A DNA stretch of 64,000 bases, taken from contig CAZVQU010000002.1 of NCBI GenBank assembly GCA_964629655.1, forward strand, positions 162,814 to 226,813, written 5' to 3'. Of this stretch, positions 4,638 to 18,343 are shown piece after piece. Below the pieces are notes generated by a model. It saw only the letters and a program-made list of their open reading frames with translations, had not been told where the DNA came from and did no database searches. The stretch comes from an uncultured Planctomycetia bacterium (GTDB taxonomy: Bacteria; Omnitrophota; Gorgyraeia; Duberdicusellales; 4484-171). Positions within the stretch are counted from its first letter, which is position 1; each line of letters opens with the position of its first letter. Position numbers and translations under genes: made by a program.

Positions 4638-5759
4638 TTACGTGACTTCCGAGCTAGGTCTTGCCAAAAAGTACCCCTGTCCGGCATCAATACCGTAATC
4701 AACCAAGACCTTTAACTCCTCTTCTTTTTCAATCCCCTCGGCAATAGAAATTATGTTACTCTGCCTACAAAAACTAATTATCGCCTTAAGGAGGTTTTGC
4801 TTAACTGGATTGTCTTGGATGTCCTGAATAAGATGTCTGTCAATTTTTATAAAATCAGGCTTAATCTCAACTATTAGATCTAAAGCAGCATATCCGCTTC
4901 CAATATCATCAATAGAAGTTTTAAATCCCTTTTCCTTAAAAAATTTCAAAGTCTTTAGGAAACCAGCGAAATTATTAATTGCTGTACGTTCAGTCAGCTC
5001 TAAAACGATATTCTCAGCTTGAGCATAGCTTTCGTAAAATGAACTAAACTCTTTGAATTTTTCATCTTGAATAAGATAAGGGCTGACATTAAAAAAGGTT
5101 AAACTTTCCTTGGCCTTATCTCCTAACTTAGTTAGAGCCTTTTTATGACACATTATCTCTAAGTCAAAAAGCATACCTAGGTGGAAAGCAGTATCAAATA
5201 AAACTTCCGGGTTTGGGAAATAACTTCCCGGTAACGGCCGACTCAAGACTTCTCTACCTAAAAGACCTTGAGGGCTTAAGTAAAATATGGGTTGAAAATA
5301 AGGATTAACCAGCTCACCATTGATAATCCCCTTAACTTCATTGATTGCCTTAGCTTTATCTTTTACTCTCTCCTCAAATGGCTGATTACGCCGCAGGACT
5401 GCCTCTAGCCGTGCAAACAACTCTTCAATATCAAAAGGCTTAGTAACATAATCATCGGCACCAGTATGTAAGCCCTCAACCTTATCTTGAGAAGCATCTT
5501 TACCGGTAAGCATAACAATAGGAATTCGACTCGTTACCTTATCTGAGCGTAGCCGCCGGCAAACCTCGTAACCACTCACATCAGGCAACACCAGGTCTAG
5601 GAGAATAAGGTCGGGTGCATCTTTGACCCTTTCAAAAGCCTCTTCGGCAGTAGAAGCTACATTAACTATATAATCACGGGAATGAAGACGCATGCTAAAG
5701 ATATCTACAAAGTCACGATCGTCATCAACTAGAAGGATTCGTTTCTTTACTGTAACCAC
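4638..5759 (-). CDS. Response regulator with receiver + EAL (c-di-GMP phosphodiesterase) domains
   Basis: N-terminal REC (ILLVDDDRDF...DLILLDLVLPDVSG...MLTGK); C-terminal EAL-domain motifs ELTER, DDIGSGYAALD, IKIDRHLIQ, EGIE, QGYFLARP. Confidence 0.8.
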   Translation of the reverse strand: MVTVKKRILLVDDDRDFVDIFSMRLHSRDYIVNVASTAEEAFERVKDAPDLILLDLVLPDVSGYEVCRRLRSDKVTSRIPIVMLTGKDASQDKVEGLHTGADDYVTKPFDIEELFARLEAVLRRNQPFEERVKDKAKAINEVKGIINGELVNPYFQPIFYLSPQGLLGREVLSRPLPGSYFPNPEVLFDTAFHLGMLFDLEIMCHKKALTKLGDKAKESLTFFNVSPYLIQDEKFKEFSSFYESYAQAENIVLELTERTAINNFAGFLKTLKFFKEKGFKTSIDDIGSGYAALDLIVEIKPDFIKIDRHLIQDIQDNPVKQNLLKAIISFCRQSNIISIAEGIEKEEELKVLVDYGIDAGQGYFLARPSSEVT

Positions 5760-5769
5760 ATTAACCTCT

Positions 5770-6141
5770 TTATTGTTCTCCTAAAAGTTCCTTAATTTTT
5801 GAAAGTAATACCTGAGGCTCAAAAGGCTTTGTTATATAGGCATCTGCTCCTACCTGAGCACCCATCTCCTTATCTGAAGCTTGAGCCCGAGCAGTAAAGA
5901 GAATTATCGGAATGCTCTTATACTTCTCATCAAACTTAAGCATCCGGCAGACCTTATACCCGTCTAATTTGGGTAGCATTAAATCCAGCACTATCAAATC
6001 GGGGTTCTCAGCCCTTGCCTTATCTACAGCTTCCTGCCCATCGTAAGCAGATAAAACTTTATATCCACTAGCTTCAAGCCGCATCTTTAGCATCTCAACT
6101 AATTGAACCTCATCGTCAACCACTAAAATTCTTTTTGCCAT
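5770..6141 (-). CDS. CheY-like single-domain response regulator (paralog 4 of 4)
   Basis: 123 aa REC-only protein; DDE..D..K signature (VVDDE, LDLMLP, ILFTAR...KPF). Confidence 0.85.
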   Translation of the reverse strand: MAKRILVVDDEVQLVEMLKMRLEASGYKVLSAYDGQEAVDKARAENPDLIVLDLMLPKLDGYKVCRMLKFDEKYKSIPIILFTARAQASDKEMGAQVGADAYITKPFEPQVLLSKIKELLGEQ

Positions 6142-6165
6142 TATAGTATTTTCCTCCGGTACAGG

Positions 6166-6528
6166 CTAAACGTATCTTTTAATAAAATCTAATAACTCTT
6201 TTGTGTCAAATGGTTTGATGAAATAATCTGTTGAGCCTAAATCGTGTGTCTTAAACATAGTCTCTGTATCTCCTTTTGCCGTAAGCATCACTACCGGTGT
6301 ATGCTGAGTTTCTAAATCAGCTCTTAACCTGCGTAATACCTCAAATCCATCCATCTTTGGCATCATGATATCTAAAACAATCAGATCAGGCTTAAGGTCT
6401 TTGGCTTTCCCTAAGGCCTCTTCACCATCAGAGGCAGTACTGACTTCATAGCCTTCAGCTTCCAACCGCATCTTTAGCATCTCAACTAATTGGACTTCAT
6501 CGTCAACCACTAAAATTCTTCTTGCCAT
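6166..6528 (-). CDS. CheY-like single-domain response regulator (paralog 3 of 4)
   Basis: 120 aa REC-only protein; N-terminal 22 aa and ~70 nt nearly identical to paralog 4. Confidence 0.85.
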   Translation of the reverse strand: MARRILVVDDEVQLVEMLKMRLEAEGYEVSTASDGEEALGKAKDLKPDLIVLDIMMPKMDGFEVLRRLRADLETQHTPVVMLTAKGDTETMFKTHDLGSTDYFIKPFDTKELLDFIKRYV

Positions 6529-6545
6529 AACTACTCCTCACTTAA

Positions 6546-6917
6546 TTATTTCTTCAAAACCTTATCGACCATTAGCAATAACTTATCAGCCTCAAAAGGT
6601 TTAGCAATAAAAAGATTATCACCTATTTCTTCACTACCTTGGTTCTCGGTCATCCCATCAGCTAAGCAAGTTAAAAAGATAATTGGGATTTTAGAAAATT
6701 GATCGTCTTCCTTTAAAGCCGCACCTACCTCATTGCCAGCCATCTTTGGCATTACGATATCCAAGATGATCAAATCAGGCTTAAGGTCTTTAGCTTTCTG
6801 TAACCCCTCTTCACCATCAAAGGCAGTAATGACTTCGTAACCGTTGGCTTGAAGGCGCATCTTTAGCATAGTTACTAATTGAGGTTCGTCGTCAACTACT
6901 AAAACTCTTTTGGCCAT
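6546..6917 (-). CDS. CheY-like single-domain response regulator (paralog 2 of 4)
   Basis: 123 aa REC-only protein. Confidence 0.85.
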   Translation of the reverse strand: MAKRVLVVDDEPQLVTMLKMRLQANGYEVITAFDGEEGLQKAKDLKPDLIILDIVMPKMAGNEVGAALKEDDQFSKIPIIFLTCLADGMTENQGSEEIGDNLFIAKPFEADKLLLMVDKVLKK

Positions 6918-6942
6918 TTCACTCTCCTTATGATTTATTATA

Positions 6943-7314
6943 CTATACCTTTAAGCACTCGCTAATCTTATTTAGAAGGTCATCAGCGTCAAAAGGCTTC
7001 ACAACTAGATCATCAGCCCCGGCTTCCCTACACTTCTCGACTAAATCTTTATTGCCAGAAGCAGTAACCATGATTATTGGAATATCCTTTGCTTGGGCAT
7101 CGCTTTTAAGCTGACGGCAAAGTGACCAACCGTCAAGTTTGGGCATTACTATATCAAGAAGTATGAGGTCAGGTTTGCCCTCCTGAACCTTCTCTAATCC
7201 TTCCTCACCATCAGAAGCAGAAATCATCTCATAGCCGCTAGCCTGAAGTCGCATCCTCATCATGGTAACGAGTTCTTCCTCATCTTCAATAAGTAATATT
7301 TTCTTCTTACCCAT
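6943..7314 (-). CDS. CheY-like single-domain response regulator (paralog 1 of 4)
   Basis: 123 aa REC-only protein. Confidence 0.85.
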   Translation of the reverse strand: MGKKKILLIEDEEELVTMMRMRLQASGYEMISASDGEEGLEKVQEGKPDLILLDIVMPKLDGWSLCRQLKSDAQAKDIPIIMVTASGNKDLVEKCREAGADDLVVKPFDADDLLNKISECLKV

Positions 7315-7328
7315 GACTCCTCCTAACG

Positions 7329-10061
7329 TTATGCCTTGCCGGATAAACCAAGATTATCCAATAACCCTTGGCTGCTATTAGCCTGGTCAGGATATGTGGT
7401 TAAACCAGCTTCTAATTTGATGCTTCCGGATAAATTCTTACCCCGTAAATAATCTTTTACTATTTCGATTAACCTGTTTTCAATCCTTTGAGCATTGTCG
7501 TTATCACAAGCAGTCAGCAAAACAGCAACTCCCTGAGAAATTTTAAACGCTTTATCATTTTCTCGACGAAAAGTACTCTTTAAAGCCTTCTCAAGATCAC
7601 TGAGTGCTGTCTGCAGCTGATTATCGGTAAGTTTTTTCTTTATTTTATCAGGAAAAGTTAGGCAAATCTTGATAAGGGAAACCTTTGATTTTTCCATCAC
7701 CGCTTCGTTCACCGCTCTGTCAAGATGCTTCTTAAGAAACAGTCCGGAAACATACTTGGGCAGGGTGAAGATGAATTTTGATCCCTTACCAAGCTTACTT
7801 TTAACCTTTATGGTGCCGCCATGCTCTTCAACTAAGTTTTTGGTAATTGCTAAACCTAGCCCGGTACCTTTTGCGCCCGGCCCGGCTACCCGCCCGAACT
7901 GCTGAAACTTAGTAAATACTTTAGGTAAATCATTCTTGGATATCCCCTGACCGGTATCAGAAATTGAGATTTCTACATCGTTTTTGCTATCTATTAACTC
8001 AATTTTTATTCTGCCTTTCTCAGAAGTATATTTTATGGCATTAGAAACAAGATTATCCAAAACCTGAGTTATCTTGTCAGGATCAACAGAAATGTTTACC
8101 GGGATATCCGGTACAGAACAGTCTAAGTCCTGTTCTTTCTTTTTGCTCTCTATCTTCCACTCCTCACATATAGTTCTTACCATCTGGCGAATATCTACCA
8201 GAGATTTCTCCAGCTTTAACTTCCCGGCTTCAATCTTAGAAATATCCAAAAGATTATTTATAATCCTTGCCAAACGATCAATGTTTTCGCTGCCCATTTT
8301 AAGGATATTTTTCTGTTTCTGGTTCACTTTGCCCGGTATCTCGTCTGCAATCAAAGACACCCCTTCCTTGATTATAGACAATGGGGTACGTAACTCATGG
8401 GAAACGGTACTAATAAACTCATCTTTAAGCTTCTCAACTTTTTTACGTTCAGTAATATCCTTAGCTATATGCACTGCGCCGACAATCTTTCCTTCTTCAT
8501 CAAAAATTGGTGACACAGTAATTAAAAGAGGTATTCCGATGTGTGGGTCGTCAACTTCTTCACTGTGAGCCTTTCCGGTTTTCTCCATAGCTTGGAAAGG
8601 ACATCCCGGCCAAGAAAAATTTTGTCCATGAACTACTTCATGACATTTTTTGCCTATAATCTCCTCCGGCTTAGCCTTCATTGCTGCAGCAAAAGCTTTG
8701 TTAACCTTAACAATAGTAGAGTCTCTATCTTGGATAAAGATTAAGTCGGTTATGGAATTAAATGTTCTTTGCCATTCTTCGGCAGCTTTCTTTATTGAAC
8801 TGTCAGCTTTTTTACGTTCGGTAATATCCCGAACCGTTGCCTGGACAAACTCTTTATCTCCAATCTGCATTTTAGTTAACAAAACTGTAGCTGGAAATTC
8901 ATCTCCACTTAATCGCTTATGTTGCCATTCAAAGAAGTTTGAACCGGTTTTTAACGCCTCTCCTATCCTCACCTTAGCTTTTACCTCTGATTTTTGTCCG
9001 TCGGGCTGATACTCTGGAGATAATTTCCCCGGCCCTTTTGATATAAACTCGGCTTCATCTTTAGCACCGAACACCCTAATTGTGGCCGGGTTTCCAGAAA
9101 TAAACTTCCAATCTGGAGGAGCTAAGACCATAATCGCATCCATGGAAGACTCATAAAGTGTTCTGAATTTTTCCTCGCTTTCGGTTAAAGCTACTTCGAC
9201 CTGCTTACGTTCAGCAATTTCTCTGTTCAAAGCAACTATAGAGATAGTGCTATTTTTTAAATTTTCTGTCATCTTATCAAAAGCCCTTGAAAGTTGACCG
9301 ATTTCATCTTTTGAGCCAGTGCCTACTTTATAATCTAAATTGCCCCCTCCGATTATCTCCATCCCCTTACGTAAAGCCTTCATCGGATTAGCAATTGTTC
9401 TAGAAACAAACATACTTACGCCCAACACTGACATCAAAAATAAAAGAACGGTATAGAAAACCCTGTATTTGCTGTGATGGACTGAATTCTGCACATTTGT
9501 TACTGCCTCATTTAATGTCAGATCAGAAGCTATGATTGCTTTATTGCGCTTTAGACTCATTGTGTCAACATAAGCCTTAAGGCCACCTGCATAAATATCC
9601 TTGTTCTCCCAGTAAGCATCACTCTCCAAAATCTTAGCTGCTTCTTCTCCTTCTCCGGCATCAACGAGCTTAATCGACATATGTTCCATTTCCACCAGAG
9701 CTATGTTTGCTTTGTCGACGCTTGCAAAAAATTTTTTGCCGGACTGATCTATTCTTGCAATAGCTTGTTTTATTGTCTTGTCTAACTTGGGCTCAATATC
9801 GTAATAGCGTTGTTTCCATTTTTCATCTCCGGTAAATGCATAATTTCGCGCAGATTGAGTTAAAACTTCGTCATGATATCGGATTGATTTAGCCAATCCA
9901 TCCATAAACGTTGTCTCGGCTATTGCATAAATATCTTCTGGTATATCTCTATTTAACGGTTTAGCAATCTCATTTAGTTGACTTATGGTTACATAACCCA
10001 TAACCGCAACTAAAAAAGTAACCAACGAAAATCCTAGCAATAATTTCTGTCCTATTCTCAC
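7329..10061 (-). CDS. Sensor histidine kinase: periplasmic sensor domain, TM, HAMP, two PAS domains, HisKA, HATPase_c, plus ~170-aa uncharacterized C-terminal domain
   Basis: TM helices flanking a ~170-aa extracytoplasmic region; HAMP (IANPMKALRKGMEIIGGGNLDY); PAS with Cys-rich CHEVVHGQNFSWPGCPF; H-box HELRTPLSII; G-boxes DTGQGI and GTGLGLAITK; 910 aa. Confidence 0.85.
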   Translation of the reverse strand: MRIGQKLLLGFSLVTFLVAVMGYVTISQLNEIAKPLNRDIPEDIYAIAETTFMDGLAKSIRYHDEVLTQSARNYAFTGDEKWKQRYYDIEPKLDKTIKQAIARIDQSGKKFFASVDKANIALVEMEHMSIKLVDAGEGEEAAKILESDAYWENKDIYAGGLKAYVDTMSLKRNKAIIASDLTLNEAVTNVQNSVHHSKYRVFYTVLLFLMSVLGVSMFVSRTIANPMKALRKGMEIIGGGNLDYKVGTGSKDEIGQLSRAFDKMTENLKNSTISIVALNREIAERKQVEVALTESEEKFRTLYESSMDAIMVLAPPDWKFISGNPATIRVFGAKDEAEFISKGPGKLSPEYQPDGQKSEVKAKVRIGEALKTGSNFFEWQHKRLSGDEFPATVLLTKMQIGDKEFVQATVRDITERKKADSSIKKAAEEWQRTFNSITDLIFIQDRDSTIVKVNKAFAAAMKAKPEEIIGKKCHEVVHGQNFSWPGCPFQAMEKTGKAHSEEVDDPHIGIPLLITVSPIFDEEGKIVGAVHIAKDITERKKVEKLKDEFISTVSHELRTPLSIIKEGVSLIADEIPGKVNQKQKNILKMGSENIDRLARIINNLLDISKIEAGKLKLEKSLVDIRQMVRTICEEWKIESKKKEQDLDCSVPDIPVNISVDPDKITQVLDNLVSNAIKYTSEKGRIKIELIDSKNDVEISISDTGQGISKNDLPKVFTKFQQFGRVAGPGAKGTGLGLAITKNLVEEHGGTIKVKSKLGKGSKFIFTLPKYVSGLFLKKHLDRAVNEAVMEKSKVSLIKICLTFPDKIKKKLTDNQLQTALSDLEKALKSTFRRENDKAFKISQGVAVLLTACDNDNAQRIENRLIEIVKDYLRGKNLSGSIKLEAGLTTYPDQANSSQGLLDNLGLSGKA

Positions 10062-10239
10062 AATATATACTTTAGTTTTTTAAATAAGCTTTTTAACTTC
10101 TCCAATTAAGTCTGACAAATCACTGGTCTCGGGGCAATAATCATCAACCCCCCAATTTTCTAGCCTTTGCTGCATCTATGGCTCCACCGGAAGAAGAAAA
10201 ACCCTTAGTAACCTATTGTATATAGGCAATTTAGGCTAG

Positions 10240-11475
10240 TCAAGGCTTTTTGCCTTTCCGTTTAGAAGCTAACTTGCCTCCGGCCCGAAAGATTGCCTCC
10301 CGGCCGAATTTATCCTTTATCTTATCAATAGCCTTATGCATTCTCTCCTGCTTTTCTTCCTTGCCTTGGTCAAAAAGGGTAACCTGAACTTCACCCTGAG
10401 TGAAATTTGAGACCTTGACTCCCACTAAACGCACCCTCTTACCCTTACGGTTAAACTTATCTAAAAGCTCTTTTATAGTCTTATAGATCGTATCAATAAA
10501 ATTAGTCGGCTTATCCAGGGTCTTAGCCCGGGTAAAGGTCAAAAAACCCTCCAACCTTATCTTTAAGGTAATAGTTTTTCCCTTAAAGCCCTGTTGGCGC
10601 AGGCGACCGGACACCTTCTCGCAAAGGTTAATCAAAGCTGCATAAATTATCTTTCTATCCCCTGTGTCCTCAGCAAAGGTATATTCATTACCTACTGACT
10701 TTGTCTCATCTTCTACTTCTACCTCTCGCTCATCTATACCATTAGCCAAGGTCCAGAAGTATTCACCATTTTTACCTAATATCTGCCCTACTTCTTGCAA
10801 ATCCTTCTTGGCTAAATCACCTATGGTCTTAATTCCTAAATCATTAAAGATAACTTTACTCTTCTTGCCCAATCCGGGAATCTTATCAATATCTAAAGGC
10901 CAGAGAAAATCAAGAACTTTATCTTGACCAACCTCAACTAAACCATCAGGCTTATCAATATCTGAGGCTATTTTTGCAGCCATCTTAGTAGGAGCTAAAC
11001 CAACTGAAGCAGTTAGCTTAGTCTTCTCGTTTATTCTAGACTTTAATAACCTACAGGTCTCTCGGGGACCTCCAAAGAGATGATGACTTCCGGTTATATC
11101 TAAAAAAGCTTCATCAACGCTTATCATCTCAACCTTAGGAGTAAACTCATGGAAAATCTCGTAAATCTCATCAGATACCTGGCTATACTTCGCAGAATCC
11201 ACTGACAGGAATATACCCTTAGGGCACTTCTTATAAGCCGTAGATATTGGTTGACCGGAGTGTATGCCAAACTTTCTGGCTTGATAAGAACAGGTTGAGA
11301 CAACCCCCCTACCCTTGCCCCCCTTAGGATCAGCTCCGACTATTACTGGCTTGCCAATAAGAGCAGGATTATCCCTCTGCTCTATGGCTGCGAAAAAAGC
11401 ATCCATATCTACATGTAAAATATAGCGTATTTTAAGAATAGGGTTTATTGGGCTAATTTTAGCCTTTTTTGCCAT
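10240..11475 (-). CDS. dinB: DNA polymerase IV (Y-family translesion polymerase)
   Basis: ILHVDMDAFFAAIEQRDNPALIGKPVIVG... catalytic palm/fingers motifs; 411 aa. Confidence 0.85.
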   Translation of the reverse strand: MAKKAKISPINPILKIRYILHVDMDAFFAAIEQRDNPALIGKPVIVGADPKGGKGRGVVSTCSYQARKFGIHSGQPISTAYKKCPKGIFLSVDSAKYSQVSDEIYEIFHEFTPKVEMISVDEAFLDITGSHHLFGGPRETCRLLKSRINEKTKLTASVGLAPTKMAAKIASDIDKPDGLVEVGQDKVLDFLWPLDIDKIPGLGKKSKVIFNDLGIKTIGDLAKKDLQEVGQILGKNGEYFWTLANGIDEREVEVEDETKSVGNEYTFAEDTGDRKIIYAALINLCEKVSGRLRQQGFKGKTITLKIRLEGFLTFTRAKTLDKPTNFIDTIYKTIKELLDKFNRKGKRVRLVGVKVSNFTQGEVQVTLFDQGKEEKQERMHKAIDKIKDKFGREAIFRAGGKLASKRKGKKP

Positions 11476-15178: not shown

Positions 15179-18100
15179 CTAATCCTTCTTTTTGGCTTGT
15201 TCTTTTTCCTCGATTATTCTCTTAGCTATTTCTTTAGGAACTTGGGTGTATTTTTTAAAGTGCATAGAGCAATTAGCCCTTCCGCTGCTTAAAGAACGCA
15301 TATTAGTAGCATAACCGAACATCTCCGATAGTGGGGCCTCAGCCATGATTGTCTTTTGAGTCCCTTTAGTCTCCATGCCTAAAATCTTTCCTCGCTTAGA
15401 ACAGACATAACCGACAAGGTTGCTGGTATACTCATCAGGAGCATTTATCTCTAGCTCCATACAGGGCTCAAGCAATACTGGGTCACACTTCATAAAAGCG
15501 CTCTTAAAACAACTCCTGGCGGTTAGCTTAAAAGCTAACTCTGAAGAATCAACATCATGATAAGAACCATCAACTAATTTTACCTTTACGTCTACTACCG
15601 GATAGCCGGCACAAGGGCCCTGCTTCATGGCTTCAATAATTCCTTTTTCAACAGCCGGAATATAATTTCTTGGTATAACCCCACCGGTAATGGCATCTTC
15701 GAACTCAAAGCCTTCTCCGGGGGCATTCGGTGAGAGCTCAATCACCACATGGCCATATTGGCCCCGGCCTCCGGTCTGTTTTATATGTTTATACTCTTCA
15801 GTTATACTATTGAGTATTGCTTCTTTATAAGCTACCTTAGGCTGCCCAACAGTAGCGCTAACTTTGAATTCTTCTTTTAATCTATCTACAATTATCTCTA
15901 AATGCAATTCGCCCATCCCTGAGAGAATGGTCTCTGAAGTCTCCTCATCTATATGAGCCTTAAAGGTAGGGTCTTCCTCGGATAGCTTAGCTAAGCCTTT
16001 ACTTAATTTATCCTGTTCACTTCTGCTATCAGGTCTAATGCTGATTGAAATTACCGGTTCGGAGAATTCAATTGACTCTAAGATAATCGGGCTCTCCGGA
16101 TTGGTAAGGGTATCTCCGGTTAAAGTGCTACTTAAACCAACTACTGCTGCGATATCTCCGGTAAAAACAGCATCTAAGTTCTCACGTTGATTAGCATGCA
16201 TCTGGACAATTCTTCCAACCCTTTCCTTCTTCTCCTTAGTAGCATTGTATATATAAGTTCCGGCTTTTAGATATCCGGAGTAGACCCGGATATAGACTAA
16301 TTTACCAATATGTTGATCAGCCTGAATCTTAAAAGCTAAGGCTGAGAAAGGTTCCTGGTCTGATGGCTTACGCTGGAGCTTATTCTCTGAATCAGAAGCA
16401 TCATGTCCTTGTATTGGTGGAATATCTAAGGGTGAAGGAAGATACAGAGTTACCGCGTCAAGAAGACTCTGTACTCCTTTATTTTTAAAAGCTGAACCGC
16501 AAAGCACCGGAACAATCTTGCGGGCTATCGCCCCTTTGCGAATAGCTTTTTTTAATTCCTCTTCGGTAATTGACTTCTCATCTTTTAAGTACTTTTCAGT
16601 AAGAAGACTATCCTCAGCTGCCGCTTTCTCTAGAAGGGTATGCCGATACTTATCACAGGTATCTTTATATTCTTGAGGAATCTCTTCAACTTTGAAATCA
16701 TTTCCTAAAGTATCATCTTCGTAGACATAGGCTTTCATAGTAATAAGATCAATTACTCCTTTAAAATTCTCTTCAGCCCCAATCGGAATCTGTAAAGCTA
16801 AAGCATTAGCACCTAACTCTTTCTCAATACTCCCTAAAACCGCAAAAAAATCTGCACCCATGCGGTCCATCTTATTAACAAAAACAATTTTAGGTACCTC
16901 ATATTTATCAGATTGACGCCAGACCGTCTCTGATTGGGGCTCAACCCCTCCAACAGCACAGAAAACTGCTACTGCTCCATCTAAGACCCGTAAACTCCTC
17001 TCAACTTCAGCAGTAAAATCTACATGCCCGGGAGTGTCAATAATGCTAACCCGATAATCTCCCCAAATACAAGTAGTGGCAGCTGAAGTAATAGTAATCC
17101 CTCTCTCCTGTTCCTGTTTCATCCAGTCCATCTGGGCAGCACCATCATGAACCTCTCCGATCTTATGAGAACGGCCGGTATAAAAGAGAATCCTTTCGGT
17201 TAAGGTGGTCTTACCGGCATCAATATGGGCCATAATCCCGATATTTCGTAATTTAGCTAGGTCATTCTTTCTAACTAAAGGGGGCTCTTCTTTCCCTGCC
17301 TTTGGCGGGACTTCTCCTTCACTACGCTCAGGACTTTGCTCTGGTCGCTTTTTGGGCTTTTCCTTAACTTTCTCTTTAGACTCTTCTGCCTTAACCTCTT
17401 CTTTAGGTTTTTCTTCTTTCTTCTCTTCAACTACCTCTTGAGGCTTGGTAACCTCAGCTGCCAGTACTTCTTCTTTAACCTCGGAAGGAAGCACTTCTGC
17501 GGTCTTCTTCTCTTCCTCTTCTTTTGCCTTCTCTTGCTTAATGGAAACTTCAACTATTGGCTCTATGCCTTGTTCTTTAAGCTGATGAGCCAAACGCATC
17601 CGCTCTTTGTCTTTGGCCTCTATCTCTTTACTCCTCAGCTCTACTTCTTTCTTACTAATTTCTAAATGCTGCTTTAACTCCTCTTTTTCTTCAACTAAAC
17701 TATTGTACTCCTCTTTAGAAACCCAGCCGCTCTCCTTTTCTCTCTTCCTTAACTTTGCTACTTCTTCCTTCTGAGCCCGTAAATCACCTACTACCTTAAC
17801 CATCCTCTCGTCAGCAGATTTGATCTTTTTCTCTAAAGCTCCTCTTTCATCCTTTAAGCTCTTGATATTTCCCTCTAAAAGCTTTACTTCTCTGTGGGCA
17901 TCCGAGACATCCCTTTTTAGATTCACATTCTTAGTAAATTCCTGCTCTAATTGTTTTTCCTTATCGAGAAGACTCTTCCTAAGCTCTCGCTCCGGTCCTT
18001 TTTCTTTCTTTAAGAGCTTCTGCTGATAAGTGAGCCACTTTTTACTTTGCTTATCTTTCTCTCTTAGCTCAGCTTCTTTCTTCTTTAAGTTTTCTAGCTC

Positions 18101-18343
18101 CTTTTTCATAACAGAGCTGCGGACCTTAATTTTTTCTAAAGCGGCAAGCTCAGCCTTATAGTCAAAAACTTTTTTCCTTAAGGATTGACTCTTATCGGTT
18201 AGGTCTACGATTCTCTTCTCGATAGCCCGGACTTGAACTTTTTCTTTAGTCTTTTTCCTGGCATCTTTGGCATCTTCGCTGTTTAAGGAGTAGACAACAA
18301 GGACTATAGCTGAAGCAATAAGTATCGAGGCAAAAATAATCAT
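15179..18343 (-). CDS. Elongation factor G homolog fused to a ~365-aa N-terminal extension (TM helix + K/E-rich coiled coil)
   Basis: Residues ~366-1054 are a full EF-G ([33 protein letters not shown]-prime, domains II-V). Residues 1-365 are [20 protein letters not shown] (TM) followed by heptad-rich KE repeats. No in-frame ATG/GTG/TTG start precedes the EF-G core. Confidence 0.75.

Follow-up and report, generated by a model that had tools for sequence, protein, structure and literature searches.

Domain architecture of the anchored EF-G

The window analysed here is a 64,000-nucleotide stretch of contig CAZVQU010000002.1 (assembly GCA_964629655.1), deposited as an uncultured Planctomycetia bacterium and placed by GTDB in the Omnitrophota. 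Its minus strand contains a single open reading frame (ORF) of 1054 amino acids (aa) with an ATG start, which encodes an elongation factor G (EF-G) behind a long N-terminal extension (Table 1). A first-pass annotation of the same DNA had described a complete EF-G mounted on an N-terminal transmembrane (TM) and coiled-coil extension, and this description held, with all EF-G domains, the TM helix and the stalk found in one ORF. An identical protein (P0003) is present in NCBI on a 598,929-bp contig. As far as architecture and paralogy alone are concerned, we are highly confident that the gene is a real, conserved EF-G paralog of the EFG I type whose product is a single polypeptide, N-terminal membrane tether included.

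The core carries every domain of the family. Pfam places GTP_EFTU (the G domain with G') at residues 364-637, EF-G_D2 at 665-747, EFG_III at 760-833, EFG_IV at 835-953 and EFG_C at 956-1042. The NCBIfam EF-G equivalog model TIGR00484 matches residues 357-1048 over profile positions 2-690 of 691, scoring 1070.3 bits against a cutoff of 659.4. Models of other translational GTPases stayed below their cutoffs: EF-G2/EFG II (NF009377, 486.6 vs 890 bits; NF058620, 484.3 vs 1000 bits), tetracycline ribosomal protection (NF012153, 406.1 vs 775 bits), LepA (158 vs 534 bits), RF3 and BipA. Identity to the EF-G of Thermus thermophilus is ~58% (884 bits). Across 120 homologues the GTPase motifs are invariant, namely A372-T380 (AHIDAGKTT), R414-I418 (RGITI), D436-H440 (DTPGH) and N490/K491/D493 (NKxD), as are the domain IV loop residues Q856, G858, G859, G861, Q862, Y863, H865, H929, D932, S933 and S934. 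The AlphaFold2 (AF2) model gives the core a predicted local distance difference test score (pLDDT) of mostly 80-93. The ratio of nonsynonymous to synonymous substitution (dN/dS), determined here and below against four relatives, is 0.05-0.07. Because these motifs are invariant and purifying selection is strong, ribosome binding and GTP hydrolysis have most likely been retained by the core. Engineered L9-EF-G chimeras have been solved on ribosomes (Protein Data Bank, PDB, e.g. 4wpo), and an N-terminal fusion is thus compatible with ribosome binding.

The proposed N-terminal TM helix is borne out by a 19-residue Kyte-Doolittle mean of 2.68 and by an AF2 helix at residues 2-20, followed by a stretch (residues 21-37) with pLDDT below 50. 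In 108 homologues the hydrophobic segment is preceded by a median of 0 residues and ~0 lysines or arginines, and is followed by 5.8 of them within 20 residues, a basic enrichment that is conserved. By the positive-inside rule, this distribution of charge predicts an N-out/C-in orientation, which would place the stalk and the EF-G in the cytoplasm. A signal peptide, and with it an exported EF-G, was considered and ruled out: a positively charged n-region is missing, the basic residues come after the helix, and an EF-G depends on ribosomes for its work.

Beyond the anchor, the full-length AF2 model contains helices at 35-114, 116-204 and 210-257, broken at G115-P116, and a model of the N-terminus alone contains helices at 36-205 and 210-257 with pLDDT 85.6. 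The heptad register runs nearly unbroken across the stalk and a 3.5-residue periodicity is significant in each helix (p<0.001), so that residues ~36-257 form a genuine coiled coil, which fully extended would measure up to ~33 nm. The earlier description of ~330 aa of lysine- and glutamate-rich heptads therefore needs dividing: ~220 aa (about 36-257) are heptad coiled coil, and the remaining ~100 aa (258-355) are a segment rich in glutamate, proline and lysine without heptads. Conservation of the stalk is not that of a generic coiled coil. Two blocks, ~95-145 and ~196-230, stand out: motif A (consensus EL.RRE.WV.K...KEKELQ.EF.KNV.L.RE), in which W103, K128, F136 and V140 are nearly invariant, and motif B (KKKE..SEWV(S/P)K.E(F/Y)N.L), in which W207, K210 and L216 are invariant or nearly so. 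The TM helix and stalk together have a dN/dS of 0.10-0.12 and are under purifying selection.

The linker is predicted to be disordered (pLDDT 25-34) and is the least conserved part of the protein (1.06 bits). In homologues it measures 62-134 aa and is net acidic (E 26%, P 12%, K 12%); its dN/dS is 0.14-0.33 and its indels stay in frame. It also bears on whether the EF-G could be made alone. The claim that no usable in-frame start precedes the core, which must then be made as a fusion, stands up: codons 294-368 contain no in-frame ATG, GTG, TTG, CTG or ATT, and no start in this region is conserved in homologues. The nearest candidates are GTG284 and ATG371, and M371 is already part of the first beta-strand (G1) of the G domain. 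The codon aligned with the start methionine of canonical Omnitrophota EF-Gs is TTA (L356). Those shorter EF-Gs start with an ATG at position -16 relative to AHIDAGKTT, and 13 of 16 have an AGGAG(G) Shine-Dalgarno sequence as well. In the long form, the 57 codons ahead of the G domain are free of ATG, GTG and TTG in 21 of 60 genes, and a start accompanied by a Shine-Dalgarno-like site occurs in only three. No coding-strand promoter-like or terminator-like site was found at the junction of linker and core. There is no conserved internal start, and these sequence comparisons lend no support to a free EF-G made by internal initiation.

Table 1. Positions of the gene and its predicted parts within the window
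Feature	Coordinates	Strand	Basis
Whole gene, 1054-aa membrane-anchored EF-G	15179..18343	-	Single ORF; stop codon 15179-15181
Predicted N-terminal TM anchor, residues 2-20, predicted N-out/C-in	18284..18340	-	Kyte-Doolittle, AF2 helix
Basic juxtamembrane segment, residues 21-35, predicted disordered	18239..18283	-	pLDDT and K/R enrichment
Coiled-coil stalk, residues 36-257	17573..18238	-	AF2 helices, heptad register, dN/dS
Stalk motif A, residues ~95-145	17909..18061	-	Homologue conservation
Stalk motif B, residues ~196-230, includes helix break 205-209	17654..17758	-	Homologue conservation
Disordered acidic E/P/K-rich linker, residues 258-355	17279..17572	-	Low pLDDT, weakest conservation
Complete EF-G core, residues 356-1054	15182..17278	-	Pfam, TIGR00484, invariant motifs, dN/dS

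Homologues and the canonical-length paralog

A search with the full-length protein returned more than 115 clusters at 90% identity, of 1000-1080 aa and 51-86% identical over ~100% of the query. They came from NCBI, JGI, ENA and Logan, and the named ones are Omnitrophota or Omnitrophica. The order of parts is the same in 116 of the 120 top homologues, nearly all of which start with a hydrophobic helix. The long open frame was likewise recovered at 61 loci when GTDB species genomes were scanned, nearly all of them in Omnitrophota. An assembly or frameshift artefact had been named beforehand as the outcome that would undo the fusion; what we found is the same frame in all of these clusters and genomes. 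A chimera, frameshift or read-through joining two genes does have some observations in its favour: two short metagenomic contigs encode an N-terminal module that ends in a stop (P0001 on L001; P0002 on L002), and the stalk of one relative is interrupted by an in-frame TAA. But the open frame was recovered independently in four data sources, all modules are under purifying selection and the linker indels are in frame, and we consider the chance of such an artefact practically negligible. Because dN/dS is low in every module and the indels preserve the frame, the extension is evidently both translated and selected. Nor are the two parts separate genes everywhere. A stand-alone N-terminal module does exist, but fusion is the rule in the long EF-G clade.

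The exceptional loci deserve a description of their own. In L002 (506-1625) and L001 (630-1430) the TM and stalk module, with the linker in L002, ends in a stop and has a CBS gene upstream as in the window. The next ORF of L002 begins MANSQRIQKVNELLKRELGRIIL... and looks RbfA-like by eye, and P0002 and the full-length P0016 have nearly identical N-termini. These modules are either a real truncated variant or a chimeric assembly. In L004 (4257-7412) an in-frame TAA within motif B (WVSK*DY) splits the gene into calls of 210 and 803 aa; its EF-G core is ~92% identical to that of the window, and the TAA may stem from a sequencing error, mark a strain-level pseudogene or be a truncation that the cell tolerates. 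Three candidates for short or split versions (P0035, P0017 and P0034) were rejected, all being artefacts: a contig-end CTG start, a mis-called downstream ATG and a single in-frame TAA. Public annotations also often hide the anchor and stalk through mis-called starts, giving 871 aa, 797 aa or 696 aa with CTG, in L005 (JAIPGM010000002.1), L086 (CP070797.1) and L003 (JAGLMF010000250.1). In each, the frame stays open further upstream: in L005 and CP070797.1 it reaches a start that takes in the TM helix, and in L003 it runs to the end of the contig.

The suggestion that this is a tethered EF-G paralog is borne out by the related genomes, in which a canonical-length EF-G was found, often adjacent. 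The genome scan recovered 16 canonical-length copies, 67-71% identical to the window core, with both forms in four assemblies. A search with one short copy showed EF-Gs of ~698 aa to be widespread in Omnitrophota, including the complete chromosome CP070797.1. Long and short forms co-occur in at least nine genomes or contigs, among them the closest relatives with data, CAZPYY01 (84% identity), CAYVYJ01 and JAIWAR01, and are in tandem in five. The tandem pairs (L015/L086 on CP070797.1, L087, L021, L048 and L066; coordinates 8001-14847 in L086 and 10001-16940 in L087) lie on the same strand, 0.2-1.6 kb apart. In two cases the order is short form, SpoU methyltransferase, peptidoglycan-binding (PG_binding_1) protein, long form, and in L021 and L066 the two genes are directly adjacent. 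This arrangement points to tandem duplication.

The long form could instead be the sole housekeeping EF-G with a lineage-specific N-terminal extension, so that all elongation would be membrane-tethered. No second EF-G occurs in the 64-kb window, and the core is a top-scoring TIGR00484 equivalog, as such a protein would be. But the closest relatives just named and the complete chromosome also carry a canonical copy, short copies are widespread in the phylum, and str-type operons have been reported from complete Omnitrophota genomes, several of which have S12-S7-EF-G-EF-Tu operons (bioRxiv 10.64898/2026.06.07.730766). We regard a sole EF-G as very improbable. The peptide patterns used in our scan could have missed a str-operon copy, and a third EF-G copy is therefore possible.

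In neighbour-joining trees of the EF-G domain, long and short forms are split with 100/100 bootstrap support, and the window core groups with the long forms L006, L007, L008 and L011. Two proteins are exceptions to the split: P0035 is a truncated long form and P0032 looks mosaic. The latter (1029 aa, NCBI, on a 4465-bp contig) is a long-form protein whose core groups with the short clade. Its column 203 has the R of the long type but its column 633 the Q of the short type, and over its C-terminal half the protein is nearer to the short copies, which suggests gene conversion between paralogs or a chimeric contig. For a given pair of genomes, divergence is greater between the long copies than between the short ones, e.g. 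0.645 vs 0.78-0.80 identity. Two alignment columns are fixed differently, the long form having R567 (G') and K997 (domain V), both present in the window protein, where short forms and Thermus have H and Q. The long form would thus be the derived state, with faster evolution and the changes H to R567 and Q to K997.

Some taxonomic labels among these matches are unexpected. L011 and L070 (JAIWAR01, labelled 'Methanosarcinales archaeon') carry Omnitrophota-type EF-Gs, long and short, with 85% and 71% identity to the window core, and many metagenome-assembled genomes labelled 'uncultured Planctomycetia/Planctomycetales' likewise carry such EF-Gs. This suggests that the archaeal and planctomycete labels on these assemblies reflect mis-binning or placeholder taxonomy. 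Short EF-Gs of Candidatus Auribacterota/Aureabacteria (L063, L072; P0347, P0357) nest inside the Omnitrophota short clade, and no long form from that group was among the matches obtained.

The stalk also has relatives of its own. Pfam gave nothing above the gathering threshold for the N-terminal 260 aa, the best being generic coiled coils (HMMR_N, 15.9 vs 30.1 bits; DivIC, 13.1 vs 28.9 bits); a PDB profile search returned generic coiled coils only (E>=6e-4), and Foldseek against PDB returned 0 matches. A word-indexed search with the N-terminal 368 aa alone gave two matches and missed even the identical protein, as K/E-rich words saturated the candidates, and its small yield therefore says nothing about how rare the module is. 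A profile of the first ~260 residues run against 1.84 billion representatives yielded 506 matches, 70 of them at E<=1e-30. Many are N-terminal fragments, but a coherent set consists of complete Omnitrophota proteins of ~210-236 aa. Like the window protein, these have the TM helix, the basic patch and both W-containing motifs; unlike it, they end after motif B, without acidic linker or EF-G, and they belong to no Pfam family. One of them, P0265 (MBF0523024.1, 'hypothetical protein'), is a stand-alone gene on a 52-kb Omnitrophica contig and aligns with the stalk profile over window residues ~10-227, motif B included (hhalign probability 98.4%, E 7e-15). Given these relatives, the long EF-G looks like a duplicated fusA fused to an older membrane coiled-coil protein, and it appears to have arisen by tandem duplication combined with that fusion.

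It is conceivable that the stalk's own membrane function is the primary one, the EF-G having been added as a conformational or regulatory module powered by GTP, or as a means of coupling that function to the translational state, rather than for elongation itself. The stand-alone homologues with both W motifs fit this, as do motifs A and B, which are as conserved as many enzyme cores, and similar TM and coiled-coil stalks bear other cytoplasmic heads such as MshEN-PilZ. However, there is no relaxation at the ribosome- and tRNA-contacting residues, which is hard to explain unless the core works on ribosomes, and we find this alternative quite unlikely. The proteins with other heads are P0205, P0218 and P0270 (529-724 aa), in which an N-terminal TM helix and repeated coiled-coil segments match the stalk profile with E ~1e-15 to 1e-24. 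P0205 ends in MshEN and PilZ domains (Pfam), which bind cyclic di-GMP (c-di-GMP); in P0218 and P0270 an MshEN-like stretch was seen by eye only. This hints that the TM and coiled-coil stalk may be a reusable tether for different cytoplasmic heads, with a match to these three proteins that composition may inflate.

The gene does not lie in a str operon (rpsL-rpsG-fusA-tuf), a context that is typical of the EF-G family but does not define it. Its neighbours in the window encode CBS, YqeY, response regulator-GGDEF, MscS and M48 proteins, and no S12 or EF-Tu motifs were found near any long or short locus. When the flanking ORFs of the 61 loci were clustered, no partner was conserved beyond close relatives. 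The M48 membrane metalloprotease, three genes downstream in the window and in close relatives, brings up the idea of a membrane-stored pro-form, in which the EF-G would be parked at the membrane and freed by regulated cleavage of the linker, giving a stress- or signal-dependent soluble pulse. Parallels in concept would be EF4/LepA, for which storage at the membrane has been reported, and transcription factors tethered to membranes. A protease-accessible, disordered linker is kept in all homologues despite its lack of sequence conservation, as this idea would have it. But the M48 neighbour is not conserved across the phylum, the linker has no conserved cleavage motif, a conserved coiled coil of 220 residues is needless for mere storage, and a soluble EF-G is already encoded. 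Storage of this kind seems to us decidedly improbable.

Elsewhere in the window, the minus-strand region 4638-10061 is a c-di-GMP/two-component cluster. It contains a 910-aa HAMP-PAS histidine kinase with a weak GGDEF match (7329-10061), four tandem stand-alone receiver genes of 120-123 aa (6943-7314, 6546-6917, 6166-6528 and 5770-6141) and, following these, a receiver-EAL protein (4638-5759). Four consecutive CheY-like genes are unusual. A candidate assignment of the ORFs at 5770-11475 as nusA-infB-rbfA was rejected, the region instead encoding the histidine kinase, the four receiver proteins and DinB.

A candidate role at the membrane

We propose that the protein is a membrane-tethered EF-G paralog acting as a translocase or recycling factor for membrane-proximal ribosomes. 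Taken as a whole, function included, we consider the case for this statement evenly balanced. Tethered by stalk and linker, an active EF-G would be confined to a shell reaching a few tens of nm from the inner membrane. It would catalyse translocation, ribosome recycling or both there, on ribosomes close to the membrane such as those engaged on membrane or secreted proteins, and bulk translation would fall to the soluble short paralog. A ~33-nm stalk and a flexible spacer of ~90 residues should be ample for reaching the factor site on ribosomes docked at the membrane. Omnitrophota cells are ~0.2 um in size (PMC10066038), and in cells of that size the membrane shell would be a large share of the cytoplasm. 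Omnitrophota encode many giant, mostly membrane-anchored proteins (bioRxiv 10.64898/2026.06.07.730766), and a tethered translocase is an attractive reading because the phylum is so rich in them. More tentatively, it is possible that the long form is a dedicated, membrane-confined elongation factor serving membrane, secreted and giant envelope proteins, perhaps dimeric through its coiled coil and with the stalk motifs docking an insertion or secretion partner.

The same architecture could also serve to hold ribosomes rather than to drive them. The EF-G moiety would then dock idle or translating ribosomes at the membrane, like a receptor or a hibernation factor, and would not act as a turnover translocase. 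An anchor, a long coiled coil and a ribosome-binding module resemble the eukaryotic endoplasmic reticulum (ER) ribosome receptors, a canonical copy exists for bulk translocation, the long form evolves faster than the short, and its two fixed substitutions, R567 and K997, both gain charge in ribosome-facing regions. However, every GTPase motif is invariant, as are the residues at the domain IV tip that translocation requires, the dN/dS of the core is that of a strongly constrained protein (0.05-0.07), and long and short forms differ at only two columns, a constraint that a pure tether would not need. We think a tether or store of this kind unlikely.

Several points weigh against the tethered translocase that we favour. 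No conserved neighbour ties the long EF-G to Sec, SRP or YidC, and synteny is confined to close relatives. The window itself has no second EF-G, and the second copy is known from the genomes of relatives. When the tree is rooted on Thermus as its single outgroup, monophyly of the long form receives a support of only 17-38%, and with rooting this weak the short form may have derived from the long one. A soluble EF-G pool could still come from proteolysis in the linker. The stalk motifs and their stand-alone homologues suggest that the stalk may have a partner or function of its own that the tether model leaves unexplained.

Novelty and comparison with known systems

The searchable literature on Omnitrophota EF-G, on anchored or N-terminally extended EF-G, and on EF-G subfamilies and translational GTPases does not describe this architecture, nor an integral-membrane-anchored translational GTPase. 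To our knowledge, EF-G has been described only as a freely diffusing cytoplasmic factor, also in the family reviews searched, and the long-form proteins are filed in databases as plain 'elongation factor G'. What is new is the domain architecture and predicted localisation within a very well-known family, and not a new kind of system. A selected tether on an EF-G with intact catalytic signatures raises the idea that some bacteria spatially partition elongation or recycling. If true, bacterial translation would be spatially compartmentalised at the level of a factor, and ER-bound translation would have a counterpart in prokaryotes. The long EF-G may also be regarded as a natural experiment on how far EF-G tolerates restricted diffusion, and it gives a new modular membrane stalk family and a marker architecture for Omnitrophota.

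The window protein shares with canonical EF-G (FusA, EFG I; T. thermophilus and Escherichia coli) the five domains with G', the GTPase motifs and the domain IV loops. It differs in its 355-residue N-terminal TM anchor, coiled coil and linker, in lying outside the str operon, in R567 and K997, and in evolving faster than the co-resident canonical copy. The first-pass remark that such an architecture is not part of canonical fusA is in keeping with the short Omnitrophota EF-Gs, which are ~698 aa long and have their own ATG and Shine-Dalgarno sequence. EFG I duplicates that divide their labour are known from Pseudomonas aeruginosa (EF-G1A/EF-G1B; PMC3832671) and as spdEFG1/spdEFG2 (PMC3150367), and a split between translocation and recycling is a known result of such duplications. 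As here, there are two EFG I paralogs per genome, one of them outside the str operon; the known proteins are all soluble and of ~700 aa, and the papers searched on this family describe neither a membrane anchor nor an N-terminal extension in them. Unlike those pairs, the Omnitrophota paralogs differ mainly by the added tether and not by core residues.

Membrane localisation and tethering are familiar from other proteins. EF4/LepA is a translational GTPase reported to be membrane-associated or membrane-stored in E. coli, and the shared concept is a ribosome-binding GTPase controlled by membrane localisation; EF4, however, belongs to a different family of translational GTPases and has neither TM helix nor coiled coil. 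RNase Y and EzrA-type proteins have a single N-terminal TM anchor, a cytoplasmic coiled coil and then a functional domain. They have the topology predicted here and the same logic of tethering a cytoplasmic enzyme through a helix and a helical stalk, but there is no sequence relationship, and the head of the window protein is a translation factor. The eukaryotic ER ribosome receptor p180/RRBP1 and kinectin consist of an N-terminal anchor, a long cytosolic coiled coil and a ribosome-binding region, and would likewise concentrate translation at a membrane. These proteins are eukaryotic and non-homologous, and their ribosome-binding part is a basic repeat, whereas in the Omnitrophota protein it is a catalytic elongation factor.

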